Source of the DNA: an uncultured Anaerolineaceae bacterium | GTDB taxonomy: Bacteria; Chloroflexota; Anaerolineae; Anaerolineales; Villigracilaceae | Assembly: GCA_964524485.1 (NCBI GenBank) | Contig: CAZGFR010000004.1 | Span: 3,036-67,035, forward strand | DNA length: 64,000 nt | Direction: 5' to 3' | Shown here: positions 8,422 to 40,493 of the stretch, piece after piece | Layout: every line of letters starts with the position of its first letter | Position numbering within the stretch: the first letter of the stretch is position 1 | Program-made: the position numbers and the translations under genes | Notes under the pieces: model-generated | What the model was told of the DNA's origin: nothing | Seen by the model: only the letters and a program-made list of their open reading frames with translations | The model's database searches: none

Positions 8422-8426
8422 GGAGG

Positions 8427-17617: not shown

Positions 17618-17623
17618 TATAAT
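17618..17623 (+). promoter_or_regulatory. TATAAT -10 hexamer 9 nt upstream of the first ATG of the GAF kinase gene
   Basis: The sequence reads ctgctgTATAATttataccgtATG. The -35 is weak (TTGTAC, 15-nt spacer). Confidence 0.35.
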
Positions 17624-17632
17624 TTATACCGT

Positions 17633-22589: not shown

Positions 22590-23531
22590 TTACTGATAAG
22601 GCGGCCAGATTTCCTTGGGCGGGTCGGGCGGACGGATCCACGAGAGCCAGCCCTCGGCGTGCTTTTCGGGGGAGGTCTTCTCGAATCGGACCAGGAGCAG
22701 GCTGAGGCCAAGTCCCACGGCACCCAGCCATTGAAGTGGAGACAGGTTTTCGTGTAGCCAGTAGTAACTAAACAGGAGGGTCACCAGCAATTCTCCCAAC
22801 CCCAGCAGCGCGGTCTGCATCCCGCCGATCCGTTTGACGCCCAGGAACAACGCCAGGCGGGAAAGGAAGGTTGCCAGGGTCAACCCGAGCACGGGCTCCC
22901 AAGGGACATTTTGAGCAGGCCAGGTGCGGTCGAAGAGGAAATAGGCGGGTACGACCACTGCGCTCATCGAAAGCAAGGTATAGAGTGTGACGGTTTGTGC
23001 GGGTACTTCGTATAGCACGCGCTGGTTGATGGGCAGGTGCAGGGCGTAGAGCATGGCCGCGCCGATCATCATCAGCACGCCGGCCAGGTTGGTGGAACTG
23101 GCGGAGAGGTCGGTGAGCAGGATGACCGCCACCGAGGCCAGCCCGATGCGGATCAGCGTCAGACGGCTGAGGGTTTGTCGGTCGAGGATCATCCAGACGG
23201 CGAGGAACAGCGGGTAGAGCGAATAGAGCATCTGCCCGAGGCTGGCAGGCAGGCGGTTGAGCGCCATGTAATAGAGCAGGGAGCCAAGGCCGTTGATGAC
23301 ACCCGCCAGCATGCAACCGACCAGACCGACAGGGAAAATGTAGAGATATCGGCGGCCGAACAGGGCGACGATCAGGAAGAGCAGGGCGGCGGCCAGGCTG
23401 GTGCGCAAAGCTACCACCGCCAGGGGACTCAGCCCTTGGGTGATGGCCAGCTTGCCAAAGACCGGCGAGACCCCCAGGAACAGGGCCGATCCCAGCGCAG
23501 CGATGACTCCTGCCGTCTTTTTATTGATCAA
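22590..23531 (-). CDS. EamA/DMT-superfamily transporter
   Basis: It has ten predicted TM segments in two EamA-like halves. The start is a TTG with a GGGAGA SD 5 nt upstream. Confidence 0.8.
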   Translation of the reverse strand: MINKKTAGVIAALGSALFLGVSPVFGKLAITQGLSPLAVVALRTSLAAALLFLIVALFGRRYLYIFPVGLVGCMLAGVINGLGSLLYYMALNRLPASLGQMLYSLYPLFLAVWMILDRQTLSRLTLIRIGLASVAVILLTDLSASSTNLAGVLMMIGAAMLYALHLPINQRVLYEVPAQTVTLYTLLSMSAVVVPAYFLFDRTWPAQNVPWEPVLGLTLATFLSRLALFLGVKRIGGMQTALLGLGELLVTLLFSYYWLHENLSPLQWLGAVGLGLSLLLVRFEKTSPEKHAEGWLSWIRPPDPPKEIWPPYQ

Positions 23532-23694: not shown

Positions 23695-25365
23695 CTATTT
23701 GATCAACGAACGCACCTCTTCGAGGAATTCGTCGTTGAGGAAATCGCCCTTTTGCATCAACGCCTGGATCCGCCCGCTGAGCAGGTTCTTCTCCTGCGGG
23801 GTCAGTTCCTTGGCGGTGGACACGATCACAGGGATGTTGGCGGTCTCGGGGCGGGCGCGCAGGGCGTCCATCACGGCGAAGCCGTCCATTTCGGGCATCA
23901 TCAGGTCGAGGATGACCAGGTCGGGCAACTCACGCTGGATCAACTCCAGACCCTCCTTGCCGTTGGTGGCCTCGCTGATGGTGTAATTGCCCTGCGATTG
24001 CAGGATGCGGCGGATGAGGCGGCGGGCCTCGGCGGTGTCGTCCACGATGGCCACGCGCGGGAAGCGGTCGGGGGCCACGTTGTTGAGCGCGGCCAGCAGG
24101 CCGTCCTCGGGAGTCTCCTCCTTGGGCGGCAGGACGATGTTGCGCGACCAGTTCTCGCCCAGCACGAACTGCTCGGCGGGCATGGTGTGTCCTGTGGCAT
24201 TGACCACTACCACGTCGGTCGGCTTGATGATGCCCGCGCGGATGAGTTTGAACAGACCCGCGAATGCCACAGCGGCGGCGGGTTCAGCGGAGATGCCTTC
24301 CATCTTGGCCAGCACGTGCATGGCGCGGTAGGCTTCCTCGTCTGTGACGCTCTCGAAAGCGCCCTGGGTGGCGTTGACGTATTTGCTCAGGATGTTATAT
24401 GCGCGGCCCGGGTCGCCCGTGGCCAGGGTCTCGATGTGGGTGCGGGGTGAGGTGACAGGCTCGGCGTTTTCCAGCCCGCGCTTCCAGCTGCTGACCATCG
24501 GCGCGCAGCCGTCCGCCTGGATGGGGGCCATGGCGGGCATGCGGTCGGTCAGGCCCATCTCGTTCAGTTCACGAAATCCCTTGTAGACGCCGATGGGCCC
24601 CATCCCGCCGCTGATGGCCTGGATGTACCAATCGGGCGTGCGCCACACGGGGGGCTGGTTCCCGTTGACAGACGCGGGCGGACCCAGCAGGGCGGTCAGC
24701 TGTTCGGCAATCTCAAAGGCGATGGTCTTCATCGCTTCGATGGAGGTGATGGTGCGCGCACCCATGTCGAGGTACAGGTTGCGCTGACGGGCGAACTCAG
24801 CCGCCATCTGCTTGACCTGGTCGTAGGACCCCGTCACCTTGATGACCTGGCTTCCATATAGCGCGATCTCCCGCATTTTGACGGCAGGCACCAGACTGGT
24901 GACGAATGCCCACAACTTGATGCTCGCGCGCGAGGCATAGGCCGAATAGGCGATGGCCACGTTGCCCGTGGATGCTGCCACCATTTCGGTGATGCCCGCT
25001 TCCTTGAGCGCTGCGATCGTGACCGCCGCCTGGCGGTCCTTGAAGGAGCCCGTTGGACCCTGGCGCTCGTCCTTGATGTACAGGTTGGGGCAGCCCAGCA
25101 TCATGCCCAGGTTGACGGCCTGGATGAGCGGCGTGCCGCCTTCACCTAATCGCAGGCTGGGGATGGGGTTGCGGATGGGAAGCAGCTCACGGTAGCGCCA
25201 CAGGTCGAAGGGGCGGTTCGCGATCAGGTGAGTGAAGTTTTCAGCGATGTTCTTGTAATCGTAATCCGCTTCGCGCCACTGGCTGTTACAACGCGGGCAG
25301 TGGAAGGAACTGGGATGGTATTCTGCGACATAGCCGCAGTCCATGCACTTGATGGTGAAGGTCAC
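23695..25365 (-). CDS. Threonine-synthase-like PLP enzyme (N-terminal Zn ribbon) fused to a C-terminal response-regulator receiver domain
   Basis: The Zn ribbon reads CMDCGY..CPRC. The PLP-lysine motif is GPTGSFKDRQAAV, with ASTGN and a GGMGP glycine loop. The REC domain spans aa ~437-556 (VAIVDDTAEARR..LVILDLMMPEMDG..IPVIVSTAKE..MQKGDF). The GTG start has a GGAGAA SD 9 nt upstream, and the first ribbon Cys lies upstream of the first ATG. Confidence 0.85.
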   Translation of the reverse strand: MTFTIKCMDCGYVAEYHPSSFHCPRCNSQWREADYDYKNIAENFTHLIANRPFDLWRYRELLPIRNPIPSLRLGEGGTPLIQAVNLGMMLGCPNLYIKDERQGPTGSFKDRQAAVTIAALKEAGITEMVAASTGNVAIAYSAYASRASIKLWAFVTSLVPAVKMREIALYGSQVIKVTGSYDQVKQMAAEFARQRNLYLDMGARTITSIEAMKTIAFEIAEQLTALLGPPASVNGNQPPVWRTPDWYIQAISGGMGPIGVYKGFRELNEMGLTDRMPAMAPIQADGCAPMVSSWKRGLENAEPVTSPRTHIETLATGDPGRAYNILSKYVNATQGAFESVTDEEAYRAMHVLAKMEGISAEPAAAVAFAGLFKLIRAGIIKPTDVVVVNATGHTMPAEQFVLGENWSRNIVLPPKEETPEDGLLAALNNVAPDRFPRVAIVDDTAEARRLIRRILQSQGNYTISEATNGKEGLELIQRELPDLVILDLMMPEMDGFAVMDALRARPETANIPVIVSTAKELTPQEKNLLSGRIQALMQKGDFLNDEFLEEVRSLIK

Positions 25366-25379: not shown

Positions 25380-28300
25380 CTAAGCCGGGCCTGGTTTAAC
25401 ACGCTGGAGGGCGTGTTCGAGACTGGTGATAAGTTCCTTCTCGCTCAATCCGCTCTTGTGGACGAATTGCTGTCCGTAGTCTTCGAGCTGCTTGCGTTGT
25501 TCGGGCGTCAGGTCACCGCTGCTGACGATGATGATGGGGATCTCGCTCAAGCCCTTGTTGGTGCGCATTTTTTCGAGGATCTTGAAGCCGTCCATGTCGG
25601 GCATGAACAGGTCGATGATCACAGCCTGGGGGGCCTGGTTGAGGATCATCTCCCAGCCCTTGGCCCCGCCCTGGGCCAGCAGCGGTTTGTAGTTGCCGTT
25701 GTCGGTGAGCATCTTGCCCATCAGGCTCAGGTCGTTGGGATTGTCGTCGATGACCAGCACTTCGCGGATGGACCCGTCGGGGTTGATGCGGTTGAGGGCC
25801 TGGACCAGGTCCTCTTCCAGGATGGGCTTGACGAGGTAGTCGGAAGCGCCCAGGCTGAATCCGCGCTCCTGTTCTTCGATGATCGAGCAGATCATCACGG
25901 GGATGTCGCGCGTTTCGGGGTTCGATTTTAACTCAGTCAACACCTGCCAGCCGTCGATGCCAGGCATCATGATGTCGAGCGTAACTGCGAAGGGCTTGAG
26001 CTCGGCCACGCGTTTGACCGCCTGCGACGGGTCGCTGAGCGGGATGACCTGGTAGCCCGAGGATTGCAGATAGCGTTCGTACAGGCTGATGACCTGCGGG
26101 TCATCGTCGATGGCCAGGACCAGCTTGCCGCCATAATCGGCAGCCTTGGGTTCGCGATAGACGGGCAGCGTGAAGAAGAAGGTGCTGCCTTTTCCGACTT
26201 CGCTCCTGAGGCCGATCTCGCCGCCGTGCATGCGGATCAGGCGCTGGCTGATGGAGAGGCCCAGGCCCGAGCCGCCCGTCTTGCGGGTGGGGGCATCGTC
26301 CACCTGGGAGAAGGGCTGGAAGAGTTTGACCTGGTCCTTTTCGGCGATGCCTGGACCCGTGTCGGTCACGCCCACGTAGATCTCGGGCTGGCCCGAGGAA
26401 TTGTTCTGGATATAGGCGTCGACCGTAATGGAGCCCTCGTCGGTGAACTTGGCTGCATTGGAGAACAGGTTGATCAGCACCTGGCGGACGCGGATCGGGT
26501 CGGCGTGTGCGTGCGGCAGGTCGGCGGGGATGTTCTTGAGCAGGCGGATCTGCTTGTCCTTGACCAGGCCCGTCGCCGTGGACATGACGCTGGCGATGAT
26601 GTCGTTCATGTTGACTTCCTCGAAGGCCAGTTCCATCTTGCCTGCTTCGATCTTGGAAAGGTCGAGGATGTCGTTGATCAGGCCGAGCAGATGCTGGCCC
26701 GAGTTATAGATGGCGGTCAGGTCGCTTTGCTGCAACTCGGTGATGGGGCCGTCGATGCCCTTGAGGATCACGCGCGAGAAACCGATGATCGAGTTGAGCG
26801 GCGTGCGCAGTTCGTGGCTCATGTTCGCCAGGAAGGTGGTCTTCAGGCGGTCGATCTCGCGCATTTCCTTCACGGCTTCCATCGAAAGTTCGTAGGAGCG
26901 CGCGTTGTCGATGGCGATGGCCACCTGGTCTGCCAGGGTTTGCAGCACGGCCACGTCGTCCTCGGTGAAGGCGTCCGTTTGCGTGGACTGGATGTCCAGC
27001 GCGCCGATGACGCGGTTCCCCACCCGCAGCGGGATGGCCGCCTCGGCGCGGGTGCCTGGCAGCAGCGGATTGGGCTTGTGCAGCGTGCTGGATTCGGTGT
27101 CGTTGACGATGAGGGGCGCACCCGACTGGGTCACCTGGCCCACGATGGACTGCGACCCGACCTGCAGGCTGTGCCGCTGAATCTTCATGGCCGCGCCCGC
27201 TTCGCCAGTGGCTTCCTGTAAATGCGCCGTGAAGCCCGTCTCTTCGACGATGAAGATCGAGGCATGATAGAAGCCGAAGCGTTCACGCACCAGGTTGACC
27301 GTGCGGTTGAACAGGGTGTTCAGGTCGAGGGTGGAGGTCACCAGGCGGGCGATGTCGGACGAGGCTGCCAGATAGGTGTTGCGACGTTTCAGGCTTTCCT
27401 CGGCCAGTTTGCGTTCGGTGATGTTGCGGGCCACCCAGAAGACTTCGTCCTCGTTCAACTTCGAGAGGGTCGCCAGGAACCAGTAGACCGTGGTCCCGAC
27501 GGGCAGGTCGTACTCGAACTGGATCTTTTCGCCCGTTTCCAGGGTCTGACGGATGAGCGCCACGAAGCGGTCGGCCGCCTCGCTGGGCAGCACCTCGTGC
27601 ATGCGTTTACCGAGCAATTCGGCGGGCGGGCGGACGAGCAGGCCAGGGTTGGTCGGCGCGATGCGGATGTAGCGCGCGTCCCCATCCACCACCAACACCA
27701 CGTCTTCCATCGAGGAGAACAGGGTGCGCAGGTCTGCTTCGGATTTGGCCAGCGCATCGCGGGCTTCGAAGCGCTCGATGGCGGCTGTCACCTGGGCGGC
27801 CAGCGGAACAAGCGCCTGGATGTGACCCTCGTTCAAACGGATCTTCGGGTCGTAGGTCTGGATGGTCATCACGCCGCGCACACCCCTTGCCGAGCGCAGG
27901 GGGATACCCAGCCAGTCCTCACCGGGCGCGCCGTCGGGGGTGACCCGTCCCTGTTGTTGGAGCTCTTCATACATCTCAGGCGTCACCAGCAGCGGGGCAG
28001 CTGTGTTGATGATGTAACTGGTCAGGCCCAGCCCGTACTTCATCGGCGGCGGAGGCGGATCTTTTTCATCCACGAAATACGGGAAGTTGATCATTCCCTC
28101 GGAAGGATCGTACAGGGCGATATAGAAATTGTCGGCGGGGGCCAGCCGTCGGGCCGCGTCATGGACGGCGCGCAACAGGTCCGTCAGGCTGGCGGCATTC
28201 AGCGCAGCTTCCGTGATTTGGGCCGTGGCGGTCTGCACCAACTGGCCGATCTTGCTCTCGGTGATGTCCTGGTTCGCGCCGAACGAGCGGACCGTGCGTC

Positions 28301-29060
28301 CCTGCGCATCCTTTTGTATGCGGAAGCGCATGGCCACGTATCCCAGCGTCCCATCGCCGAATGTGACGCGGTGTTCGAGGCCAGTGCTAAAGTTCGGGTC
28401 ACTGGTCTCGACCGACTTCTGGATCTCCATGCCCACCAGAGGGGCATCCTCGGGGTGAACGAAGCGCTCTACATAGCGCGCGGCGTTCATGGTGTAACCG
28501 CCCTCGCGTTCGGCGCTGGTGCGCATCACGTTGTAGAACTGGTCGTTGAACGTGAAGGTGTCGGTCAGGAAATCATATTCCCAGTTGGCCAGGCGCGCAA
28601 TGCGCAAAGCCTCGCTCAATTGGGCTTCGCTGGCGCTCACCTTCTGGAACAGGCGCGCGTTCTCGAGAGCCAGTGAAAGCTGGTCGGTCACCTGCTTGAC
28701 GAGCAACTGATCGTCGGAACTCCAGGTGCGGGTGCGCTCCTCGTCCACCACGTGCATGGTGGCCCAGTTGGTCTGGTCCATCTGGAAGCCGATGGAGATG
28801 CTGGGCGGTACACCCATCTCGTTGCCGTTGTCCACGACGATGGAGTCGACCTGCTGCGTGAGCATGCCCGTGGCCGCCAGGCGCGGACGCGGCGCGGGAC
28901 GGGCCGATGCGACCGCCTTCGGGTCGACGACCTGCCTGCCGCCAGCCTCACGCGGACCCTTGGACTGGCCCCGTTTTGGCTTCGATGGGGCCTCTTCGGG
29001 CTGGATCCCGTCAAAGAGCGTATCAATACGCTTGTCGATTTTCTGTTTCTTCTTTGGCAT
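25380..29060 (-). CDS. Cytoplasmic hybrid sensor histidine kinase: basic N-tail, headless GAF-like module, PAS, GAF, PAS, GAF, HisKA, HATPase, two receiver domains
   Basis: HisKA reads FLANMSHELRTPLNSIIG. HATPase reads NLFSNAAKFT, DTGPGI, GGSGLGLSI. The two REC domains read LVLAIDDDP..VTLDIMMPGIDG and VLVIDDNP..VIIDLFMPDMDG. The kinase-proximal GAF (RFGFYHASIFIVEE..LADQVAIAIDNAR) belongs to the same family as the receptor GAFs. No TM segments are visible. The start is taken at ATG 29060; the ORF-track start at 29204 is a TTG. Confidence 0.85.
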   Translation of the reverse strand: MPKKKQKIDKRIDTLFDGIQPEEAPSKPKRGQSKGPREAGGRQVVDPKAVASARPAPRPRLAATGMLTQQVDSIVVDNGNEMGVPPSISIGFQMDQTNWATMHVVDEERTRTWSSDDQLLVKQVTDQLSLALENARLFQKVSASEAQLSEALRIARLANWEYDFLTDTFTFNDQFYNVMRTSAEREGGYTMNAARYVERFVHPEDAPLVGMEIQKSVETSDPNFSTGLEHRVTFGDGTLGYVAMRFRIQKDAQGRTVRSFGANQDITESKIGQLVQTATAQITEAALNAASLTDLLRAVHDAARRLAPADNFYIALYDPSEGMINFPYFVDEKDPPPPPMKYGLGLTSYIINTAAPLLVTPEMYEELQQQGRVTPDGAPGEDWLGIPLRSARGVRGVMTIQTYDPKIRLNEGHIQALVPLAAQVTAAIERFEARDALAKSEADLRTLFSSMEDVVLVVDGDARYIRIAPTNPGLLVRPPAELLGKRMHEVLPSEAADRFVALIRQTLETGEKIQFEYDLPVGTTVYWFLATLSKLNEDEVFWVARNITERKLAEESLKRRNTYLAASSDIARLVTSTLDLNTLFNRTVNLVRERFGFYHASIFIVEETGFTAHLQEATGEAGAAMKIQRHSLQVGSQSIVGQVTQSGAPLIVNDTESSTLHKPNPLLPGTRAEAAIPLRVGNRVIGALDIQSTQTDAFTEDDVAVLQTLADQVAIAIDNARSYELSMEAVKEMREIDRLKTTFLANMSHELRTPLNSIIGFSRVILKGIDGPITELQQSDLTAIYNSGQHLLGLINDILDLSKIEAGKMELAFEEVNMNDIIASVMSTATGLVKDKQIRLLKNIPADLPHAHADPIRVRQVLINLFSNAAKFTDEGSITVDAYIQNNSSGQPEIYVGVTDTGPGIAEKDQVKLFQPFSQVDDAPTRKTGGSGLGLSISQRLIRMHGGEIGLRSEVGKGSTFFFTLPVYREPKAADYGGKLVLAIDDDPQVISLYERYLQSSGYQVIPLSDPSQAVKRVAELKPFAVTLDIMMPGIDGWQVLTELKSNPETRDIPVMICSIIEEQERGFSLGASDYLVKPILEEDLVQALNRINPDGSIREVLVIDDNPNDLSLMGKMLTDNGNYKPLLAQGGAKGWEMILNQAPQAVIIDLFMPDMDGFKILEKMRTNKGLSEIPIIIVSSGDLTPEQRKQLEDYGQQFVHKSGLSEKELITSLEHALQRVKPGPA

Positions 29061-29820
29061 ATTCCACCAGTTCCTGGGCCAGGTCACGGTATTGGACGGA
29101 GCCGCGGGTGTTGGGTCGGTATTGGGTAATGGGCAGTCCTGCGATGGGGCTTTCGCGCAGTTTGGTATCCACTTCGATGACAGTCTTGAACACGCCCTCG
29201 CCAAAGGTGCTGCGCAACTGCTCGTTGATGTTGCGATGCGTGCGGTTGCGGCGGTCGAACATCGTCACCAGGATGCGATAGGCCAGGTCGGCGTTGCTTT
29301 CCATGCGGATGCGGCGGATGAGGTTCATCATGTTACGCAGGGCGTAAGCCGAGAAATACTCCGCCTGGGTGGGGATCACCAGCAGGTTGGCCGCGCTGAG
29401 CGCGTTCATGGTGATGGCGCCCAAAGCGGGCGGGCAGTCCATCAGGATGTACTCGTATTTCATGTTGCCCGCGCTCTGGATGGAACGGCGCAGGGTGGAG
29501 ATGTACCCCGTCCGCACGGGCAGGAAGTGTTCGGCGCTTTCGATGCGCGAGTTGCACGGCACCAGGTCGAGGTTGGCGATCTCCGTCGTGCGCACGGCCG
29601 TCATCAGCGGTGTGGCTTCGATCAGCACATTGCTCGACGTGTATTCACTCTCGCCGATCTCGATGCCCAGCGCCAGCGACAGGTTGGCCTGCGGGTCGAG
29701 GTCGATCAACAGCACCTTGTGTCCCAGTTCCGCCAGGGCGGCCCCGAGCGAGAGGGTGGTGGTGGTTTTGGCCACTCCACCTTTTTCGTTTGAAATGGCG
29801 ATTGTTTTGGTCATGGTCAT
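29023..29820 (-). CDS. Orphan ParA/MinD-family (Soj-like) P-loop ATPase
   Basis: It has the deviant Walker A (ISNEKGGVAKTTTT), then LLIDLDPQANLS and a Walker B region (ILMDCPPAL). No parB or parS-like partner is seen nearby. Confidence 0.9.
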   Translation of the reverse strand: MTMTKTIAISNEKGGVAKTTTTLSLGAALAELGHKVLLIDLDPQANLSLALGIEIGESEYTSSNVLIEATPLMTAVRTTEIANLDLVPCNSRIESAEHFLPVRTGYISTLRRSIQSAGNMKYEYILMDCPPALGAITMNALSAANLLVIPTQAEYFSAYALRNMMNLIRRIRMESNADLAYRILVTMFDRRNRTHRNINEQLRSTFGEGVFKTVIEVDTKLRESPIAGLPITQYRPNTRGSVQYRDLAQELVEYAKEETENRQAY

Positions 29821-29826: not shown

Positions 29827-32667
29827 CTAGGATTCGGGCCGCTCCGAAACGGATTGCGGCAGGACTTCGATGCGGTTGACGCCCAGGGCGTTCTTCAACT
29901 CCTGCATCGCCAGACGGATCATTTCGTTCGGGTCATTGGTCGAGCGGATGGTCGAGGTAATCTCAGATACCTTGCGTTCACGTTCGGCGCGTCGCAGGGA
30001 GTCCTGAAGCAGGCGGGCATTTTCGAGCGCCAGCGCCAGGCGGTCGGACGCGGTCTGCACCAGCGCCACCTCCTCCTTGGCCCACTGACGGTCCTTCTGC
30101 AGCGACATCACGTTCAGCACGCCGAGCAGTTCGCCGCGCAATTTAACGGGCATGACGATGGTCGGCTGGTGCGCGTCCCCGCCGTCCGTCACAACCACTT
30201 CGCCGCGTTCCAGCGCCTGCTGCATGCTCTCGCTTTGGACGGGCTTGTTGAGCAGCCTGCCGCCGCTGATCGACTGATAATAGCCGACGCTGGCGCTCTG
30301 CTGGGCGAAGCCCTTCCACTCCTGCCGCAGATACTGGCTGTACATGCTCTGCACTTCTTCGAGGGCCTGCTGGGTGCGTTCGAACAGGCGCGCGTTCTCG
30401 ATGGCGATGGCCACCTGGTCGGCCAGGGTGCTCAACACGTTGGCGTCGTTGTCGGTGAACGCCCCGTGCTTTTCGCTTTGCACGTCCAGCACGCCGATCA
30501 CGTCGCCGCGCACAATCAGCGGCAGGGCCATTTCGGAGTGGGTGTTAGGCAGGTCTGGGTTGTTGAAGAAAGCCGAGTCCGCGCCCACGTCGAGGGCGAT
30601 GCGCGGCTTGCCCGTGTTGGCCACATACCCCACGATGCCCGTCTGGCCCACCTGCAAGCGGTGACCGCGCGCCAGCATGCGCTGTCCGCCTTCGCTGTTG
30701 GCGGCCTGCAGCACGGCATAGGTGCGGGTCGGGTCGAGCAGGAAGATGCCTGTGTGATAGAAGCCGAATTTCTCGCTCACGGTACGGGCGATGAGCGGGA
30801 GCAGCACGTCGATACGCTGTTCAGCGGAGATGGCGCGTGAGACTTCGCTGATGGTCTCCAGGTTCCTGGCGCGCTCTTCACTTTGCAGGCGCGCGATCTC
30901 CAGGTCGTAGGTTCGCTCGGCCACGCTCCGTTCCAGTCCTCTCAGCGTATCGGAAAGCTGGCTCACGGTTTGATCCATCACACTGGCAAGCGTGCCGAGC
31001 TCGTCGGAGCGCTGGATGGCGTTCCGCACCGTGAGGTCGCCTGCCTGGATGCGCTCAGCGGTTGCCGTCAGGGACTGGACCGGGGCGACCAGCATCCTTG
31101 CGGATAGATTGGCCAGAAAACCTGCGCCAACGAAAAGGATCACAAGCAACGCCGCGCCCGCGCCCAATTGGCCGAACAAAGGCTGGAGGAAAGTCTCGCC
31201 GGGTTCCACGGCAATCGCCGTCCACGGTTTGAGCTGCGTGCGCGTCAGGCTGGCCTGGTCGTCACCGGGGGAGGTGTCGTTCGTTTCGAGTTCCACAGAG
31301 AAGAAATTCGAATCAGGATTTGCCAGGCCCGCTTCCATGTCGGGCAGGTTCAGCAGGAAATTCTCCTGTGGGCCAGGCGGGAGCCTCTGGGCATCCTGGA
31401 GGTCGGCGATCTGTGTCGCGCTGAACGGGGTGGATGTCTTGTAAAGCTTGTTCTCGTTCTTCTCGTCTGCGAGGATGGTGTGGTTTTCGTCCATCAGGAG
31501 AATGTAGGCGGTGGTATCGGCCGTATTGCCCTTCACAATTAGATTCTGCAGGACGGCCGCATCATATTCGACCACCAGCACCCCCAGCAGGGTGCCGTCC
31601 TCGTCCGAGATGGGGGCGCTGAAATACAGTTCCGCCGCACCCGTCTGCGGGTCGAACAGCACGTCCGAGGCGTAGGCCTGTCGATTCGAGATGACGGACC
31701 GATAGAAGGGGGCATTCGACTCATCGGTGGAGACGTGCGCCTGTTCCTCACTGCTGTCGAAGAGACTCTTGCCCTGGGCGTCGAGGACCAGATAGGTCTT
31801 GATCTCCCTTTGTGTCGAGCCCAGCGCCAGCAGCGTCCCCTGGAGTTCTTCGGCGGTTTCCTCTCCCTTGAGGAAGCCGATCACGCTGGGCAGGGTGGCA
31901 TTGGCCTGGATGGTGTTTAGATTATCCTGGAGGAAGGTGTCTATCTGGTGGGATGCCTGTTGCGCCTTATCCTGCAAACTCTGTCTGGATTTCTGGGTAA
32001 GGATATCCTGCGTGCTCAATAAAGCGGGGACGCCGATCATCAACACGGGCACGATCAACGTGATGAGGTAGGTTGTGTTGAGCTGGGTGCGCAACGACTT
32101 GAACTCGATCTGGGTGGTCAGGTGGATGCCGAAGAACAGCACCACCGCGCCGATGACGATGATGACACCCTGTTGGATCAAAGAGGCGATCGGAAGCCGC
32201 TCGGTGAGCTGCAGTCCATATTCGAAGATGAGGGTGGCGACGCTGAACATCCCGCCGATCACCAGGGCGAGTTGCACGCCGCGCGGCGGCAGCGCCTGCA
32301 GGGCAAAGATGGCCGTGAAGACTATCGCACCCAGAGCGAAAGTGATGCCCATCCCTGAAACGAAGAGCGTAGCAACGGTAAAGGTTAAGTTGACGATGCC
32401 GATGAATATCCAGGCCGTCAGGGAGGTATTCTTCGTCCGCCAGAGCAGGATCGTGCCTATCAGGATGGCCAGGCCCAGGATGGCATTGTCGATGAACAAC
32501 CCGTAATGCTGCCAGGCGCCGCCGCTCTGCCGTAACAGGCTGAGGTAGAACAGCTCGACCAGGATCACGGCGATCACGCCCGCCACACCGAAAGTCAGCA
32601 GGGTGCGATATTGGACGATTTGCTTGCTGGCTTGTCGTCGTTCTTGAGTGGGTTCAGAAGGTTGCAT
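29827..32667 (-). CDS. Receptor paralog R8: ~7 TM + dCache-like extracytoplasmic domain + TM + HAMP + GAF + GAF-like + C-terminal GAF-head stub; no output domain
   Basis: HAMP reads AERIQAGDLTVRNAIQRSDELGTLASVM. The signalling helix reads LERSVAERTYDLE. The GAF core reads KFGFYHTGIFLLD..GHRLQVGQTGIVGYVA..PDLPNTHSEMALPL..LADQVAIAIENARLF. A second module ends in RLALALENARLL. The terminal stub reads ERERKVSEITSTIRSTNDPNEMIRLAMQELKNALGVNRIEVL. Confidence 0.8.
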   Translation of the reverse strand: MQPSEPTQERRQASKQIVQYRTLLTFGVAGVIAVILVELFYLSLLRQSGGAWQHYGLFIDNAILGLAILIGTILLWRTKNTSLTAWIFIGIVNLTFTVATLFVSGMGITFALGAIVFTAIFALQALPPRGVQLALVIGGMFSVATLIFEYGLQLTERLPIASLIQQGVIIVIGAVVLFFGIHLTTQIEFKSLRTQLNTTYLITLIVPVLMIGVPALLSTQDILTQKSRQSLQDKAQQASHQIDTFLQDNLNTIQANATLPSVIGFLKGEETAEELQGTLLALGSTQREIKTYLVLDAQGKSLFDSSEEQAHVSTDESNAPFYRSVISNRQAYASDVLFDPQTGAAELYFSAPISDEDGTLLGVLVVEYDAAVLQNLIVKGNTADTTAYILLMDENHTILADEKNENKLYKTSTPFSATQIADLQDAQRLPPGPQENFLLNLPDMEAGLANPDSNFFSVELETNDTSPGDDQASLTRTQLKPWTAIAVEPGETFLQPLFGQLGAGAALLVILFVGAGFLANLSARMLVAPVQSLTATAERIQAGDLTVRNAIQRSDELGTLASVMDQTVSQLSDTLRGLERSVAERTYDLEIARLQSEERARNLETISEVSRAISAEQRIDVLLPLIARTVSEKFGFYHTGIFLLDPTRTYAVLQAANSEGGQRMLARGHRLQVGQTGIVGYVANTGKPRIALDVGADSAFFNNPDLPNTHSEMALPLIVRGDVIGVLDVQSEKHGAFTDNDANVLSTLADQVAIAIENARLFERTQQALEEVQSMYSQYLRQEWKGFAQQSASVGYYQSISGGRLLNKPVQSESMQQALERGEVVVTDGGDAHQPTIVMPVKLRGELLGVLNVMSLQKDRQWAKEEVALVQTASDRLALALENARLLQDSLRRAERERKVSEITSTIRSTNDPNEMIRLAMQELKNALGVNRIEVLPQSVSERPES

Positions 32668-32690: not shown

Positions 32691-35564
32691 TCACTTGCGG
32701 ACAGGTTGAGGCTTGACACCGTCGACCGTCGCCGACGGGGAAGGCTGTACCTGGACCAACACTTCGGTGTCGCCGCCCAGCGCCTGGCTCAACTCCTGCG
32801 CGGTGATCTGCAGGATCGACTCGAGGCGGATCGAAGAACCGATCTTGCCCGAAAGGTCGGCCGAGAGGCGTTCCAGTTCGGCGCGGCGGGTCGACTCTTC
32901 GAACAGGCGGGCGTTCTCCAGCGCGAGCGCCATTCGGTCGCTGACGGCCTGCACCAGGCTGATCTCGTCCACATTCCATTCGTGACCTTGTTGGCTCGGC
33001 TGGACGTTGATGACACCGATCACCTGGCCGCGGAGTTTGACCGGCATGGACAGGGACGCGGTCTGGCCGTCGTGCGCGGGGTTGAGGACCACCTCACCCC
33101 GTTCCAACGCGGCTCTCGCCTCGGCTGAATATTCCTCGGACTTCAGCCTGGCCCCGCCGCTCAGGGTTTGCTGGTATCCCAGGCCCTGGCTGCGGCGGGC
33201 AAAGCCCGTCCACTCCTGGCTGATGTACTGACGGTACACCGACTGCACCTCGGCCAGGGCGGCTTCCGTCTGGCTGAACAGGCGGGCGTTGTCGATGGCG
33301 ATGGCCACCTGGTCTGCCAGCACGGTGAGGGTGCTCAGGTTTTCGACCGTGAACACGCCGGAGTCGGTGCTTTGCATATCCAGCACGCCGATGGTCTGTC
33401 CGCGTGCGTTGAGGGGCAGCGCAATCTCGGAACGGGTATTGGGCAGATCGGGATTGTTGAAGAAAACGGCGTCAGCACCCACGTCGAGGGCGATGCGCGG
33501 TTGACCCGTCTGGGCCACGTAGCCCACGATGCCGGTCTGTCCCACTGCCAGGCTGTGACCGTGCGCCAGCATCCGCTTACCGCCTTCACTGCTGGCTGCC
33601 TGGAGGATGGCGAACTGTCGGTTGGAGTCGAGCAGGAAGATGCCCGTGTGATAGTAGCCGAATTTTTCGGTGATGAGGTTCGTGATGAGCGGCAGCAGCG
33701 ATTCGAGCCGCTGCTCGCCCGAGATGATGCGCGCCACGTCGCTAATGACCTCGAGGTCATGCGCGCGCGCCTCGCTTTGACGGCGGGCCACATCGAGGTC
33801 GTTAGTGCGTTCGGCCACGCGGGTTTCGAGGCTTTGCAGGGTCAGTTTCACCTGGTCGGACATGCGGTTGAACGTGGCTGCCAGTTCGCCGATCTCATCG
33901 TCCGCGCTGACGACAGCTTGGGCGGTCAGGTCGCCGGCGGCAAGTTTTTCAGCGGTGCTCTTCAAGGACAGCACCGGCTGCGAAATGATCCGCGCTGCAT
34001 ACAGGGACGAGAGTACGGCCAGCAGGATCAGCGCGATCGAGCCGAGCACGATGGCGCGGTTCTGGATGCGGACCGGGGCGTATAGCACGGATTCAGGCTG
34101 GCTGGCGATGGCCACCCACTTGACCGATTTCATCCGCGCGCCGGTCGTCAGAGCGCTGACCCCGGGCTTGGGCAGGTCGGCAGTGAAGTAGGGCGTTTGT
34201 TCGAGAGTCTGGATGCCCGCTACGACCGCGTCCGAACTGGCGATGGTTTCGTCGGCGGGACCGGGCGGAAGCAGTCCCTGCAATTGCAGGTTGGCCATGT
34301 CGATCGGCCCGTAGTTGCTGAAGGATTTGTACAACTCGTTGCGCGGACCGGTATAGGCCACGCGCACATAGGTACGGGCGTCCACCAGGGCCACGAGTTG
34401 TTGCTGTTCCTCATGGCCCGCCAACAGGGAGCGCATCATGTTCTGGAAGACGGCTGCGTTATATTCCGCGCGCAGGATGCCGATCACATCGCCGGAGAGG
34501 TTGCGGACCGGCGTGCTGAAATGGATATTGGCCTTGTTGCCGCTCTCGAAGACCAGGGTGGAGACGTACGGCAGGCCTGAGTTGAAGGGGACCTTGAAAT
34601 AGTCGAACCCGCTCTCGTCACGGCCGATCTGGTTCTCTGCCGTATCGAGGATATCCCGTCCGCTGACGTCGAGCAGGGCATACGAGTAGATGAACAGCAG
34701 GTCCTTGCGGACGAAGGTGTTCAGCGTGCGCAGGGCGTTGGCCTCCTCCGGGCTGCCCGCGCGCTGGAAGGTGGGCAGGGTCATGTACGCGATGATGGTG
34801 GGCTGTTGGGCTTCCGTGCGCAGGCTGTCCAATTGGGCGATGATGTACGCATCGGCCTTGTCGGCGGCGTTGGCGGCCAGGTCCGAGAGGTTCAACTTGG
34901 CCTGTGACTCCTGGGCCTGACGGCCCGCCAGGCTGCCAGCCGTGCCGAAGAGGAGCAGCGGGACCAGCGCTACGAGGGTGAAGGCGATCAGGATCTTTGC
35001 CTGCAGATTGAAGGAACTGAAATTCCTGAGGAGGAGGACGGTGAACACGATGGCCAGGACCGCTGAGATCGGGGTGCTGATCGTCGTGTTGGTTTGGATG
35101 CCAAACCCGACCGGCAGGAACAGGTCCGCGAGGATGGCCAGGGTGCCCAGGACGGCGGAGAAGGCAGCCGCCCGGACCACGTAGTTGGTCGGAAGCGTGG
35201 CGGTCGCGATGGTGGTCGTCATGACGATAAGCGCCAGGACCGGCGCAACCACCTGCCCGGGCAGCAGGTAGGGCATGAGCAGAATGGACATCACCAACAC
35301 AGTGATTAGGATGCCCATGCCGCCGCCCACCTGCCCGCGGTAGCTCAGGAGCAGGCTGACCAGGCCTGTCAGTGCCAGGAAACCGGCCAGGAAGACGCCG
35401 GCATAGATATCGCTCCCCAGGGTCTGCACGTTGAGCAAGAGGACTGCCGTGACGACGGTCAGGATCGCTGCTGTCAGACCGCTGATCCAGAGCGCGTTTC
35501 GGCGCCGCCTGTCTGTGAGGGCGTCGGAAGTGGGGGAGGGTGGTTGCGTTCGAGCGGGCATCAT
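32691..35564 (-). CDS. Receptor paralog R7: ~8 TM + dCache-like domain + TM + HAMP + GAF + GAF-like + GAF-head stub; no output domain
   Basis: It has the same architecture as R8. HAMP reads AEKLAAGDLTAQAVVSADDEIGELAATF, followed by LETRVAERTNDLD. The GAF core reads KFGYYHTGIFLLD..LADQVAIAIDNARLF. The stub reads RAELERLSADLSGKIGSSIRLESILQITAQELSQALGGDTEVLVQV. Confidence 0.8.
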   Translation of the reverse strand: MMPARTQPPSPTSDALTDRRRRNALWISGLTAAILTVVTAVLLLNVQTLGSDIYAGVFLAGFLALTGLVSLLLSYRGQVGGGMGILITVLVMSILLMPYLLPGQVVAPVLALIVMTTTIATATLPTNYVVRAAAFSAVLGTLAILADLFLPVGFGIQTNTTISTPISAVLAIVFTVLLLRNFSSFNLQAKILIAFTLVALVPLLLFGTAGSLAGRQAQESQAKLNLSDLAANAADKADAYIIAQLDSLRTEAQQPTIIAYMTLPTFQRAGSPEEANALRTLNTFVRKDLLFIYSYALLDVSGRDILDTAENQIGRDESGFDYFKVPFNSGLPYVSTLVFESGNKANIHFSTPVRNLSGDVIGILRAEYNAAVFQNMMRSLLAGHEEQQQLVALVDARTYVRVAYTGPRNELYKSFSNYGPIDMANLQLQGLLPPGPADETIASSDAVVAGIQTLEQTPYFTADLPKPGVSALTTGARMKSVKWVAIASQPESVLYAPVRIQNRAIVLGSIALILLAVLSSLYAARIISQPVLSLKSTAEKLAAGDLTAQAVVSADDEIGELAATFNRMSDQVKLTLQSLETRVAERTNDLDVARRQSEARAHDLEVISDVARIISGEQRLESLLPLITNLITEKFGYYHTGIFLLDSNRQFAILQAASSEGGKRMLAHGHSLAVGQTGIVGYVAQTGQPRIALDVGADAVFFNNPDLPNTRSEIALPLNARGQTIGVLDMQSTDSGVFTVENLSTLTVLADQVAIAIDNARLFSQTEAALAEVQSVYRQYISQEWTGFARRSQGLGYQQTLSGGARLKSEEYSAEARAALERGEVVLNPAHDGQTASLSMPVKLRGQVIGVINVQPSQQGHEWNVDEISLVQAVSDRMALALENARLFEESTRRAELERLSADLSGKIGSSIRLESILQITAQELSQALGGDTEVLVQVQPSPSATVDGVKPQPVRK

Positions 35565-36562: not shown

Positions 36563-38307
36563 TACTCGCCTCCTTGTGCGCCGGGCATCTCGGCCGCCTC
36601 GAGTTCAGCGGGTTGGATCTGCACCGTGACGTCCGAGCCGCCCAGGGCGCGGCTCAACTCTTCGGCCGCTGTCTGGATGATGGCCTCTATGCGGATGGTG
36701 GAACTGAGTTTGCCGGTGATCTCGGCGGTTACGCGCTCGACGTCCGCGCGGTGTTGGGCGGCGCGCAGCAGGGTGGAGGTCTCGAGCGCCAGCGAAAGGC
36801 GGTCGGCCACCGCCTCGGCGATATCGACATCGTCGGGATTCAAGGGTTTGTCCTGGGGGACGCGCAGGTTGATAATGCCGATGACCTGTTCGCGCAGGCG
36901 GATGGGCACAGCCAACGTGTTGGCCTGCTGGACGGTCTGATTGTTGCGCAGGGCTTGTTGGATGGGTTCGCCTTCGAGCGGCTTCTCCAGCGGGCGGACA
37001 CCCGCTGCCGAGGTTCGGTATCCCATGGCGGCGGCAGCCGGACGCAGGATTCTCCACGCCTGGGTGATATACCCGCTGGTGGCGCGCTGGGCCTCATTGA
37101 GCAGAGCGCGCGCCTCTACGAAGGAGTTGGCGTTCTGGATGGCGATGGCCACCTGGTCGGCCAACGTGGTGAGCGCCTCCACATCTTCCTGCTTGAAGGC
37201 GTTCGGCTCGGTGCTTTGCACGTCCAGTACGCCGATCAGTTCGCGGCCCACCCTCAGCGGCAGGGCCAACTCGGAGCGAGTGTTGGGCAGGTCGGGATTA
37301 TTGAAGAAGACCACGTCTTCGCCCGCGTTCATGGCGATGCGCGGATTGCCCGAACCCGCCACGTACCCCACGATGCCCACCTGCCCGACCTTGAGCCTGT
37401 GTCCGCGCGCGAGCATTTTCTGCCCGCCCTCGGTGTTGGCGGCTTTCAGGACGGCATACTCATGGGCATCATCCAACAGAAAAATGCCTGTGTGATAAAA
37501 GCCAAAATGCTGGCTGATGACATGCGTGATGCGCGGCAGGAGCGCGTCCAATTCCTGGACGGATGCGATGACCCGCGCCACCTGGGTGATGGCTTCGAAT
37601 TGGACGGCGCGTCGCTCGCTGTTGAGGCGGGCGGACTCCAGGTCGGCGGTGCGTTCCTGGATGCGCTCCTCCAGGTGCAGGCGGTTCTGCTCCAGTTCCC
37701 GCAGGGCCAGACGGGTCTGGCGGGCCTCCTGGGTGATCTCGCTTTCCAGGCGCTGCAGGCCGAGCACGATGACTCCGCTGAAAACCAGGAACATGCCCGC
37801 GGTACTGAGCCAGTTCAACACGTTCAGGTTGCCCGCCACGGCCACTGCCACGGGGGCGTAACCGTTCAGGTACACGATTCCCCCGAAGAGCATGGCCGAC
37901 AGGGAGAGGGCGGTGGCGGTCCAGCCCGCGCGGGACGAGAGCATCAGGGTGGCGATCACAACCGTGGCATAAAAGAACAGGGTCGCATCGCTGAGGATAC
38001 CGAAATAGGTTAATTCATTGATGGCCACGCCGAACACGGCCACCAACAGCACCAGTACGCGTCCCGTGTAGGGGAACGGCAGGATGGTGATGACCAGCGC
38101 CAGCAGGTAGCCCACGGCGAATACGATGGTGGTGACGGGATTTTGCGCGGCAAGGATGCCCGCGACCAGCGCAAAGAAACCGAACACCAGCCCGACTCCC
38201 AACATGGGGCGGATAAAACCCGCACGCCAGTTTCGCACTGCCGATTCGGCTCCGTGCTGGATTGGACGCAGCAGGCTGGTCAGGGTAGGATCGTTGTACT
38301 TGTTCAT
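36562..38307 (-). CDS. Receptor paralog R6: multi-TM (no large loop) + coiled coil + GAF + GAF-like + GAF-head stub; no HAMP, no output domain
   Basis: About 6 TM segments are followed by LEERIQERTADLE. The GAF core reads HFGFYHTGIFLLD..LADQVAIAIQNANSF. The stub reads RADVERVTAEITGKLSSTIRIEAIIQTAAEELSRALGGSDVTVQI. Confidence 0.8.
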   Translation of the reverse strand: MNKYNDPTLTSLLRPIQHGAESAVRNWRAGFIRPMLGVGLVFGFFALVAGILAAQNPVTTIVFAVGYLLALVITILPFPYTGRVLVLLVAVFGVAINELTYFGILSDATLFFYATVVIATLMLSSRAGWTATALSLSAMLFGGIVYLNGYAPVAVAVAGNLNVLNWLSTAGMFLVFSGVIVLGLQRLESEITQEARQTRLALRELEQNRLHLEERIQERTADLESARLNSERRAVQFEAITQVARVIASVQELDALLPRITHVISQHFGFYHTGIFLLDDAHEYAVLKAANTEGGQKMLARGHRLKVGQVGIVGYVAGSGNPRIAMNAGEDVVFFNNPDLPNTRSELALPLRVGRELIGVLDVQSTEPNAFKQEDVEALTTLADQVAIAIQNANSFVEARALLNEAQRATSGYITQAWRILRPAAAAMGYRTSAAGVRPLEKPLEGEPIQQALRNNQTVQQANTLAVPIRLREQVIGIINLRVPQDKPLNPDDVDIAEAVADRLSLALETSTLLRAAQHRADVERVTAEITGKLSSTIRIEAIIQTAAEELSRALGGSDVTVQIQPAELEAAEMPGAQGGE

Positions 38308-40493
38308 TCCTGGTCCTTGCCTTGGAACTGGATCGCGACCTCTGCGTCGGGCAGGGTCTGGCTGAGTTCCTGGACAGTGGTCTGGAGGATCTTCTCGATG
38401 TCCACCAGGCCGCCGATGCGCGCCGAGATCTCACCGATGGTGCGCTCTTTGGCGGCCAGCCTCTGGGTCTCTTCCAGCAGGCGGGCGTTCTCCAGCGCCA
38501 GACTCGCCTGGGTGGCGGCGTTCTCTGCGATGGACAGTTCGTTCCTGGTCCACTCGTAGGCGGGATCATCCTTCTCGATACCCAGCGTGCCGATCAACTG
38601 CCCCTGCAGCGCCAGCGGGACGAGCAGGGTGCTGCCCTTCTCTCCGCGCAGGATGACGGTCCGACCCTCGACCAACTGGGACAGTTGCTCTTTGGGCAGG
38701 TCCTGCTTGACGGGGGCCACGTTCAGGCCGTCGTACTCGAACTCGGATGACTTTTCCTGCGAAACCTGCTTCCATGCGTTGCGGACCTGAGCCTGATACA
38801 GCATCCCCAGATCGCGCAGGTTCTCGCGCGTGCGCTCCGCCAGGCGGGCGTTGTTGATGGCGATGGCCAACTGGTCGGCCACGGTCTGCATGATCTTGAC
38901 ATAATCGTCGTCGAAGGCCGCTTCCTGCTTGGACTGGACGTCGAGGGCGCCGATGATCTCGCCGCCATAAATGAGAGGCAGCGCCATCTCGGAGCGGGTC
39001 TCGGGCAGCAGCGGATTGCGGAAGTGGGTCACATCGGTGCCTACGTTGAGCGCCACGCGCGGACGTCCCGTCTGGGTGACGAAGCCCACGATGCCCACCT
39101 CGCCGATCTTGAGGCGGTGGTTCAGCGCCAGCAGTTGACGGCCCGCGTCGCCCGTGGCAGCGCGCAGAACAGCATACTCCTTGCGGTCGTCCACGAGGAA
39201 GATGCCTGCGTGATAAAAGCCGAATTCGTCGCGGATCAGGTTGGCGGCGCTGTTCAGGAGTGGATCCATTTGCTGCTCGGACGTGATCTCGCGCGCAATG
39301 CGCGAGGCGGTCTCAAGTTCACGGCGGCGGCGGTCCAGATCCTGGGTGCGTTCCCTGACGCTCTGTTCCAGGTTCCCGATCATGCTGCGCAATTGGAGGG
39401 TCATCTGGTTGAAGGCCGTGCCGAGTTGCCCGATCTCGTCATCTTCGTTCACAATCGAGATGTCCTGGCCCAAGTCGCCGTTTGCGATCGACAGGGCTGA
39501 ACGGGTCAAGTCGCCGAGCGGACTCAGGACGCGGCGGGTGGTGAAGAACAACACCAGGGCGCCGATGGCCATGGCGATGACCACCACGATCAACCCGAAG
39601 AGGATGCGCGAAAATTGCTGGGAAAGGGCGGGTCTCAGGTCCGTGAAGACCTCCACCGTGCCGATGGTCTGCCCCGAGTAATCCACAAGAGGGAAGCCAT
39701 AGATGCGGTAATTGGTATTGTCGCCAGCCTGAACGGGGACGCTGGTCTTTGCGCCCTGGACCAGACCTTCGTAGTAACTGGATCCCGCATAGGGCAGGGA
39801 GGGTTTGGTCGTGGCGAGCACGAACAGGTCAAGGGTGGGGCCAGGCTCGAAAGTGGTGAAATCCTGCAAGGTGGCAAGTTCGAGCGACTGACGCGTGAGC
39901 AGGATGCGCCACTCGTGCCCGTACTGAGCCTTGAGGTCATTCAGGAAGGTGTCGTCCACGTTCGAGCCGAACTCGACGGAACCGATGAACTGATTCTGGT
40001 AGAAGATGGGGGCCACGCCGCGCAGGCCCAAGCCGCCGCGTCCCACTTCCAACCCCACCACCGGCAGTTTGGTCTGGTTGACCTGTACCACTGTGCGGCG
40101 GAAAGTGGAAAGGTCATCGCCGAAATTCTCAAGGTCGTGCAGGCGCAGAAAGGAAATGGCGGGCGGGATGTGATACTGGTATTGCGGCAGGTCGAAACGC
40201 TGGTTGAGGGTCTGGTAGTTCTTGAGGGTCAACTGGGTCAGGGCCTGTCGGTCGCGGCGAGCGAAGGCATCCTGGATGCTCGGGTCGTTTGCAGCCTCGA
40301 GCGCCAGCCCCAGGGCCAGGGTGCCCTGGCTTTCCACCTTGGCGTTGAAAGCCGTCTCGAGTTGCTGATCGTCGGCGCGCTCGCGCTCGCGATTGGCCGC
40401 CTGGTTGGTCAGGTAACTGTAGACGAACAAGCCTGCAATGGCCACGATGAAGGCGGCCAGAGTGGGGATGAGGATTCTTTGGGAGAGTCTCAT
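38304..40493 (-). CDS. Receptor paralog R5: TM + Cache-like periplasmic domain + TM + HAMP + GAF + GAF-like + GAF-head stub; no output domain
   Basis: The Cache-like segment reads PPAISFLRLHDLENFGDDLSTFRRTVV..GLRGVAPIFYQNQFIGSVEFG. HAMP reads ANGDLGQDISIVNEDDEIGQLGTAFNQM. The GAF core reads EFGFYHAGIFLVD..VADQLAIAINNARL. The stub reads AAKERTIGEISARIGGLVDIEKILQTTVQELSQTLPDAEVAIQF. Confidence 0.8.
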   Translation of the reverse strand: MRLSQRILIPTLAAFIVAIAGLFVYSYLTNQAANRERERADDQQLETAFNAKVESQGTLALGLALEAANDPSIQDAFARRDRQALTQLTLKNYQTLNQRFDLPQYQYHIPPAISFLRLHDLENFGDDLSTFRRTVVQVNQTKLPVVGLEVGRGGLGLRGVAPIFYQNQFIGSVEFGSNVDDTFLNDLKAQYGHEWRILLTRQSLELATLQDFTTFEPGPTLDLFVLATTKPSLPYAGSSYYEGLVQGAKTSVPVQAGDNTNYRIYGFPLVDYSGQTIGTVEVFTDLRPALSQQFSRILFGLIVVVIAMAIGALVLFFTTRRVLSPLGDLTRSALSIANGDLGQDISIVNEDDEIGQLGTAFNQMTLQLRSMIGNLEQSVRERTQDLDRRRRELETASRIAREITSEQQMDPLLNSAANLIRDEFGFYHAGIFLVDDRKEYAVLRAATGDAGRQLLALNHRLKIGEVGIVGFVTQTGRPRVALNVGTDVTHFRNPLLPETRSEMALPLIYGGEIIGALDVQSKQEAAFDDDYVKIMQTVADQLAIAINNARLAERTRENLRDLGMLYQAQVRNAWKQVSQEKSSEFEYDGLNVAPVKQDLPKEQLSQLVEGRTVILRGEKGSTLLVPLALQGQLIGTLGIEKDDPAYEWTRNELSIAENAATQASLALENARLLEETQRLAAKERTIGEISARIGGLVDIEKILQTTVQELSQTLPDAEVAIQFQGKDQE

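Follow-up and report, generated by a model that had tools for sequence, protein, structure and literature searches.

A conserved basic peptide and a truncated GAF domain at the N-terminus of a hybrid histidine kinase encoded beside a ParA-like ATPase in uncultured Anaerolineales

The gene block and its kinase

The 64,000-nucleotide stretch analysed here (the window) is part of contig CAZGFR010000004.1, from the assembly GCA_964524485.1 of an uncultured Anaerolineaceae bacterium. Our subject is the N-terminus of a hybrid histidine kinase which is encoded on the minus strand next to, and overlapping, the gene for a ParA/MinD-family ATPase. Both genes belong to a co-directional block which, in the direction of transcription, encodes the receptors R1-R6, an SsuA-like binding protein, the receptors R7 and R8, the ParA/MinD-type ATPase, the hybrid histidine kinase, and a fusion of a threonine-synthase-like enzyme with a receiver domain. 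The features of immediate concern are as follows.

50014 down to 23695, minus strand: co-directional gene block
29023..29820, minus strand: ParA/MinD-family ATPase, 265 amino acids (aa; Pfam)
25380..29060, minus strand: hybrid histidine kinase, 1226 aa (open reading frame (ORF), Pfam)
29023..29060, minus strand: 38-nucleotide (nt) overlap of kinase codons 1-12 with the 3' end of the ParA-like gene (sequence)
28995..29060, minus strand: conserved basic amphipathic N-terminal peptide, kinase residues 1-22, MPKKKQKIDKRIDTLFDGIQPE (consensus of 80 anchored loci)
28863..28994, minus strand: disordered linker rich in Pro, Ala, Lys and Arg, kinase residues 23-66 (AlphaFold2 predicted local distance difference test, pLDDT, below 50 at 25-63)
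28644..28862, minus strand: truncated ('headless') GAF, kinase residues 67-139, a three-strand meander and the start of helix alpha5 (homology and AlphaFold2)
28590..28718, minus strand: long alpha5/signalling helix, kinase residues 115-157, running straight into the first PAS domain (AlphaFold2)

Following the peptide, linker and truncated GAF, the kinase continues with PAS, GAF, PAS_4, GAF, HisKA, HATPase_c and two receiver (REC) domains. Its assignment as a hybrid histidine kinase rests on Pfam matches to HisKA (1.6e-19), HATPase_c (2.9e-27) and, in two stretches, Response_reg (1.9e-37). The protein is soluble, without a transmembrane segment (hydropathy maximum 1.08), while all eight receptors have such segments. 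An earlier reading of the sequence (the original prediction) had described this as the only kinase in the block. That is true of the co-directional genes; a second pair, encoding a GAFx3 histidine kinase and a REC histidine kinase, lies divergently on the plus strand (17597-21807), adjoining the block but outside it. The clusters designated L001 and L002 are accompanied by a similar set of kinase and regulator genes, also on the opposite strand.

The product of the neighbouring gene is a ParA/MinD P-loop ATPase. It has an intact deviant Walker A motif (EKGGVAKT), no membrane helix, and Pfam profile matches to AAA_31 (1.1e-46) and CbiA (3.6e-22). Searches of NCBIfam returned only sub-threshold ParA/MinD/RepA matches and no named subfamily above its cut-off. 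For comparison we assembled 82 related loci, of which 80 were anchored for the consensus of the N-terminal peptide and 78 allowed the gene overlap to be measured. The ParA-like gene lies directly upstream of the gene carrying the N-terminal peptide in 82/82 loci, the position taken by partner genes beside those of their cognate ATPases. The system as a whole is conserved in approximately 211 species-level genomes, comprising Anaerolineales and Chloroflexota metagenome-assembled genomes, and may therefore be regarded as a major uncharacterised pathway of uncultured Anaerolineales.

The N-terminal peptide, linker and truncated GAF domain

The original prediction opened the kinase with a basic, low-complexity tail. 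The basic character is evident, with six Lys/Arg residues among the first 22, an enrichment of the kind found in partner proteins of ParA/MinD ATPases. What had appeared to be of low complexity, however, is a conserved 22-residue motif followed by a disordered linker. The motif has the consensus M-P-K-K-K-x-I-D-K-R-L-D-x-L-F-x-D-I-x-P-E-E and is conserved in 82/82 loci; in the anchored set, individual positions reach K 73/80, R 79/80 and F 80/80. Its hydrophobic residues form a stripe (I8/I12/L15/F16/I19) flanked by K3-5, K7, K10 and R11, and AlphaFold2 places a short helix at residues 8-15 (pLDDT 61-71). The linker varies between 45 and 167 aa across homologues, with 16% proline and 14% alanine.

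In the 78 loci measured, the ParA-like reading frame stops 32-47 nt beyond the kinase ATG and nearly always at 32, 35 or 38 nt, lengths which preserve a single frame offset. The ATPase tail (EYAKEE..RQAA) is read from the same DNA as kinase codons 1-12 and is conserved together with the peptide. Within the window, the overlap includes the A-rich run CCAAAGAAGAAAC. Conservation of the peptide extends past the overlap, to L15, F16, D17/18, I19, P21 and E22 (L 76/80, F 80/80, D 57/80, P 52/80, E 68/80), and selection therefore acts on the kinase frame itself. The assigned start codon is secure: the same methionine opens the kinase in 82/82 loci, which disposes of an alternative start that would remove the N-terminal segment. 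An upstream TTG start at 29204 was rejected, as the resulting extension is unconserved and the homologues share the downstream methionine.

Kinase residues 67-139 are encoded at 28644-28862 (minus strand) in the ORF beginning at the ATG at 29060, and their translation (LTQQVDSIVV...LALENARLFQ) agrees exactly with that given by the original prediction, which described a GAF-like body without its head. This description is borne out by Pfam, phmmer, AlphaFold2 and Foldseek, all of which recover the C-terminal part of a GAF domain only. The Pfam GAF model scored 14.2 bits on residues 60-156, relative to a cut-off of 22.4 bits, and matched only model positions 97-133 of 133; no whole GAF domain (PF01590/PF13185, alpha1 through alpha5, approximately 130-150 aa) was found in the segment above the curated score, and no Pfam or NCBIfam family spans the N-terminal module in residues 1-205. 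Among solved structures, phmmer paired the segment with C-terminal stretches of GAF domains, namely residues 133-208 of 8w26_A (E 4.7e-4) and residues 104-151 of 153 in DevS.

The AlphaFold2 model of the kinase N-terminus (111 sequences) contains strands at 71-77, 87-93 and 99-105, with block pLDDT values of 78-91, and a helix at 115-157 whose block values mostly exceed 90 and which continues into the first PAS. No folded head precedes the strands and no complete GAF is formed; the overall predicted template modelling score (pTM) is 0.44. Foldseek superimposed this model on the GAF domains 5m85, 5dfx and 4fof over roughly 85 columns with a root-mean-square deviation of 2.3-2.5. The elements lacking from the kinase are alpha1, beta1, beta2 and the pocket helices. 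The homology of residues 67-139 is thus limited to the C-terminal portion of GAF domains.

The truncated domain is nearly invariant at W99, T101, W113 and residues 119-135, its beta4-beta5 hairpin has a conserved motif of its own (AFQxGxxxWATLQVxDE), and 31 diverse sequences share 16 invariant and 5 nearly invariant positions. This near invariance argues for a specific contact, be it with the domain's own dimer partner, with the N-terminal helix of the kinase, or with the receptors. It also bears on the suggestion that gene fission or domain loss truncated a GAF and left the headless body behind as a remnant without function. A sub-threshold Pfam score and the disappearance of the half which forms the ligand pocket would suit such decay, but the invariant positions, the retention of the domain across the approximately 211 species genomes and the confident structure prediction all speak for a maintained element, and we consider a remnant highly improbable.

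One of these candidate contacts would complete the domain in cis. Here, the N-terminal helix of the kinase would fold back over the tether and take the place of the missing GAF head, forming a latch which the ParA-like ATPase could open. The predicted helix at residues 8-15, a tether of sufficient length, and the joint conservation of peptide and body in the 82 loci are in keeping with this arrangement. The pTM of the N-terminal model is, however, only 0.44, and the divergent cluster L084 presents the peptide without the body. In L084, the gene overlapping the ParA-like gene starts M-A-D-K-D-L-K-D-R-L-E-G-L-F, and its product is neither a kinase nor equipped with a headless body; the presence of the peptide thus follows that of the ATPase gene rather than that of the body. 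Completion in cis accordingly seems distinctly unlikely to us.

A profile of the kinase body was also compared to 1.84 billion representative sequences. Giant multi-GAF proteins dominated the results, scoring through many alpha5 matches, and the matches which spanned the full length of the profile were confined to N-terminal or module-2 bodies, the latter belonging to receptor tails as described below. In giant proteins of 2000-3700 aa (P0233-P0240, three of which were read) the profile produced up to 17 separate matches per protein.

The receptor tails and their GAF-head stubs

The domains listed by Pfam for R1-R8 and the kinase comprise dCache, MASE11, HAMP, GAF, PAS, HisKA, HATPase and REC; the scans of these nine proteins revealed no methyl-accepting chemotaxis protein (MCP) signalling domain, CheW or CheA P5, and those of R1-R8 no kinase, MCP, GGDEF or other output domain. 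The receptor tails consist of a full GAF, a second and smaller GAF-like unit in R2-R8 ('module 2', or mini-GAF), and a stub of approximately 50 aa which is terminal in R1-R8. The stubs, detected with a hidden Markov model (HMM) and listed with independent E-values (iE), and the module 2 that we modelled are located as follows.

29851..29994, minus strand: R8 C-terminal GAF-head stub (stub HMM, iE 1.6e-19)
32742..32888, minus strand: R7 C-terminal GAF-head stub (stub HMM, iE 2.6e-17; AlphaFold2 helix 161-178 and strand 183-189 of the tail model)
32901..33182, minus strand: R7 module 2, a complete mini-GAF whose own head consists of a W-helix and GY hairpin (AlphaFold2; Foldseek)
36610..36753, minus strand: R6 stub (stub HMM, iE 1.9e-21)
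38322..38462, minus strand: R5 stub (stub HMM, iE 2.1e-21)
40535..40672, minus strand: R4 stub (stub HMM, iE 3.4e-14)
42585..42728, minus strand: R3 stub (stub HMM, iE 3.8e-18)
44214..44351, minus strand: R2 stub (stub HMM, iE 1.4e-19)
46160..46300, minus strand: R1 stub, following a full-size GAF (stub HMM, iE 3.8e-11; sequence)

The likeness between the kinase body and the second module of the receptors, noted in the original prediction, is not a chance one. An HMM of the receptor module-2 body matched the kinase N-terminus with 37.6 bits (iE 4.5e-11), mainly over the last strand and helix, and in the reverse direction a profile of the kinase-type body matched, along the whole of the profile, receptor-type module-2 bodies in related proteins (55 bits in L084). 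Judged by these profiles, the truncated GAF is related to the mini-GAF of the receptors. Module 2 itself is compact (approximately 110-130 aa), and Pfam recognises only its C-terminal half.

The same prediction regarded the receptor stubs as orphaned GAF heads. That they are heads is clear, as a profile of 47 diverse stubs matched the first ~45 residues of GAF domains in the PDB (6oap_A 138-182, E 3.7e-13; 8w26_A 10-53, E 5.2e-13); each stub is a genuine GAF head made up of linker helix, alpha1 and beta1, and ends after beta1. The structural models point in another direction as to their isolation. In the AlphaFold2 model of the R7 tail (104 sequences, pLDDT 85, pTM 0.74), module 2 is composed of E45-50, E53-56, H64-72, E76-78, E87-94, E97-106 and H115-152 (E, strand; H, helix), with the Lcd1 GAF as its best Foldseek match, and the stub follows as helix 161-178 and strand 183-189 (pLDDT 80-89). 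DSSP reports this strand as paired, that is, within the chain in a monomer model. The stubs are thus probably not orphans.

Covariation within the tails was assessed using gap-excluded mutual information with average product correction, in place of a mean-field direct coupling analysis of the same 373 receptor tails which was dropped when its top pairs proved to be gap and indel artefacts. Strong block covariation was found within the stub, where some nine positions vary together. A single link joins the stub to alpha5, between the F of ENARLF (at the end of the tail's own alpha5) and the stub strand, and no link from the stub to the module-2 sheet was detected among the 373 tails. The pattern agrees with the helical-hairpin geometry intrinsic to a GAF head and does not discriminate between pairing in cis and in trans.

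Across the related loci, stub-terminated ORFs number 291; they occur in 80/82 loci, always on the kinase strand, and are syntenic with the kinase. A further eight matches lie more than 30 aa from the end of their ORF, most being stubs with longer tails. The sole clear case of a continuing domain among the ~299 matches is found in L035 (1737-3909), where a stub-type head runs on into hairpin and body as one complete mini-GAF, followed by a second stub. Both kinds of piece are therefore structurally compatible. Stub strands differ strongly between receptor classes, and subtypes such as an NDP type and a GGSxVxVQIQP type are apparently class-specific.

These observations bear on the proposal that the C-terminal heads of the receptors dock in trans on the headless body of the kinase, rebuilding a GAF-like domain and thereby coupling eight receptors devoid of output to one kinase. 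In the GAF fold, beta1 pairs with beta5; docking would accordingly set beta1 of the stub on the free beta5 edge of the kinase and pack alpha1 beside alpha5. Several observations are compatible with such docking: the stub is a true GAF head and the kinase body a true GAF tail; the GAF of 8w26_A is the best PDB match of the body and the second best of the stub; the receptors lack any output domain; the 291 stubs share the strand of the kinase; in the model of the kinase, beta5 appears to lie exposed at the edge of the sheet; L035 joins both pieces in one domain; and the stubs covary little with their own module-2 sheet.

Against it, the strand of the R7 stub is paired within its own chain at good confidence, module 2 already possesses a head of its own, stubs are likewise found after a full GAF (R1) or after PAS (the proteins P0004 and P0069), and the class-dependent differences between stub strands are strong. 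The distribution of the pieces is a further difficulty. L083 and L084 contain stub-terminated proteins, but the ~20 kb viewed of these clusters includes no N-terminal headless body. In L051 (9988-16183), a split variant, the protein encoded after ParA consists of the N-terminal peptide, headless body, two GAF domains and a terminal stub of its own, and the kinase is a separate gene of 1512 aa, 3 nt further on, which begins with PAS. These clusters lend no support to an obligate partnership of stub and body. We consider docking in trans improbable, and extend the same scepticism to the wider scheme in which split-domain halves join in trans, receptors plug into the kinase, and the ParA-like ATPase organises or recycles the assemblies through the N-terminal peptide, yielding an array independent of CheW and CheA.

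The kinase N-terminus as a candidate adaptor for the ParA-like ATPase

The interpretation we favour, with a probability of roughly one half, is that the kinase N-terminus constitutes a three-part adaptor, in which a peptide which partners or activates the ParA-like ATPase is followed by a flexible tether and then by a truncated GAF which caps the signalling helix. Residues 1-22 would form a partner or ATPase-activating peptide by which the ParA-like protein binds the soluble kinase and then positions or clusters it, as ParC/ParP and PpfA/TlpT suggest by analogy; the receptors may be included in this arrangement. The Pro/Ala-rich residues 23-66 would provide the tether. Residues 67-157, comprising the last three strands and alpha5 of a GAF with neither ligand pocket nor head, and with a helix leading into the first PAS, may serve as a dimeric cap or protein-interaction platform on top of the signalling helix of the kinase (PAS-GAF-PAS-GAF-HisKA).

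The peptide is read as a handle for the ATPase because of the adjacency and overlap of the two genes, the case of L084, and the layout of published activators. Activators of ParA/MinD ATPases carry an N-terminal Lys/Arg-rich stretch of approximately 20-22 aa followed by an unstructured region rich in Ala and Pro and an interaction domain, examples being ParB/Spo0J, SopB, MinE, PomX, McdB and TlpT (PMC7993993; PMC10241942). The sequences establish the homology and truncation of the GAF piece, the conservation, the gene overlap and the synteny, whereas the binding of the peptide to the ATPase and the partner of the truncated GAF are inferred; the mechanism as a whole draws on genomic association and analogy. 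The original prediction missed the link to ParA, which accounts for the basic N-terminus better than the reading offered there.

Several points weigh against this adaptor. Firstly, the overlapping ParA frame could itself account for the conservation of codons 1-12. Secondly, the kinase of L083 has a similar peptide (KKRVKKLFTDI), and no ParA gene is present in the 20 kb viewed. Thirdly, the function suggested for the truncated GAF is an interpretation, its near invariance hinting at a specific partner. Lastly, a basic amphipathic helix could bind the membrane instead. The L083 kinase N-terminus (17439-19395) additionally features repeated mini-GAF units.

Membrane binding would make the peptide a tether which targets the kinase to the vicinity of the receptors, with the adjacency of ParA reflecting mere co-expression. 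A hydrophobic stripe between Lys/Arg flanks is what such a helix might display; the kinase has no transmembrane segment and the receptors are membrane proteins; and L083 retains the peptide in the absence of an adjacent ParA gene. The peptide presumably resembles the KRLF-type membrane helix of MinD. However, the helix includes three acidic residues and presents a short hydrophobic face, and the conserved overlap with ParA, along with L084, binds the peptide to the ATPase gene. We therefore regard membrane targeting as unlikely.

The proposed adaptor for the ParA-like ATPase may be set beside known systems. Partners of ParA/MinD proteins share with the kinase a short N-terminal Lys/Arg stretch, a flexible Ala/Pro region, an interaction domain, and a gene adjoining that of the ATPase, and in the PpfA/TlpT and ParC/ParP systems of chemoreceptor arrays the cargo is, as would be the case here, a signalling complex (PMC7993993; PMC10241942). 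The carrier of the peptide differs in being a GAF/PAS hybrid histidine kinase rather than ParB, a CheW-like protein or a chemoreceptor; the overlap of the two genes is approximately 32-38 nt; and the ATPase reaches the cut-off of no named NCBIfam subfamily. Chemoreceptor-CheW-CheA arrays similarly place many membrane receptors on one soluble kinase and may include a ParA-type ATPase (ParC or PpfA) in their gene cluster. They are distinguished by the MCP, CheW and CheA P5 domains which our scans failed to find, the present receptors ending in GAF, mini-GAF and stub.

Relative to canonical and cyanobacteriochrome-type GAF domains of sensor kinases (8w26, 6oap, DevS 2w3d), the kinase piece corresponds to the last strands and alpha5 and the stubs to the first ~45 residues, so that, unlike those domains, neither is whole. 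A eukaryotic parallel is offered by rice, in which the GAF domain of OsERS2 binds and inhibits the histidine kinase MHZ1/OsHK1 (PMC6981129). There too, a receptor which lacks a productive kinase output exerts control over another histidine kinase by way of a GAF-type surface, although the GAF is complete and neither a split domain nor a ParA-type ATPase is involved. In the literature on this cluster, on MASE11, and on split or swapped GAF domains, we encountered no description of the system.

The individual parts are of known kinds, namely a ParA/MinD ATPase and N-terminal partner peptide, GAF-type sensors, and a hybrid kinase. What appears to be new is their combination, in which a partner-type peptide is situated on a histidine kinase, the two genes overlap, an N-terminal GAF is truncated, and receptors without output end in a GAF-head stub. 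If the adaptor reading is correct, a ParA/MinD partner peptide is carried by a histidine kinase, and a two-component pathway of the GAF/PAS kind joins the chemotaxis arrays as a target of ParA-type spatial organisation. The membrane sensors of this class (dCache or MASE11, HAMP, GAF, mini-GAF, stub), which have no recognisable output, would then have to signal through contact with one soluble kinase. The truncated GAF and the GAF-head stubs offer compact candidates for the interface of such coupling, even if the split-domain idea is presently the less likely reading.

Further genes in and next to the block may bear on input and output, and are located as follows.

35588-36562, minus strand: SsuA-family periplasmic substrate-binding protein, amid the receptor array
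23695..25365, minus strand: threonine-synthase-like pyridoxal phosphate-dependent enzyme fused to a C-terminal receiver domain (Pfam PALP and Response_reg; NCBIfam)
22590-23531, minus strand: EamA-family exporter, 3' of the threonine-synthase-like/receiver gene

Homologues of the threonine-synthase-like/receiver enzyme were found in 68/82 loci and lie just downstream of the kinase wherever they could be placed. The fusion is probably the cognate response regulator, and together with the EamA exporter just downstream it probably constitutes the output of the pathway. This suggests that the output is not transcription but a small molecule whose synthesis and export are controlled by phosphorylation. 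Binding proteins are also present in the equivalent clusters L083 and L084, and may be ligand-delivery partners of the dCache receptors.

Two further proteins of unusual architecture are encoded elsewhere in the window, both on the minus strand. A single ORF of 841 aa at 6010-8535 combines an FtsW/RodA (SEDS) domain with the dimerisation domain of a penicillin-binding protein and a transpeptidase domain, and a protein of 1229 aa at 59168-62857 unites an N-terminal PMT_2 glycosyltransferase domain with C-terminal NHL repeats.

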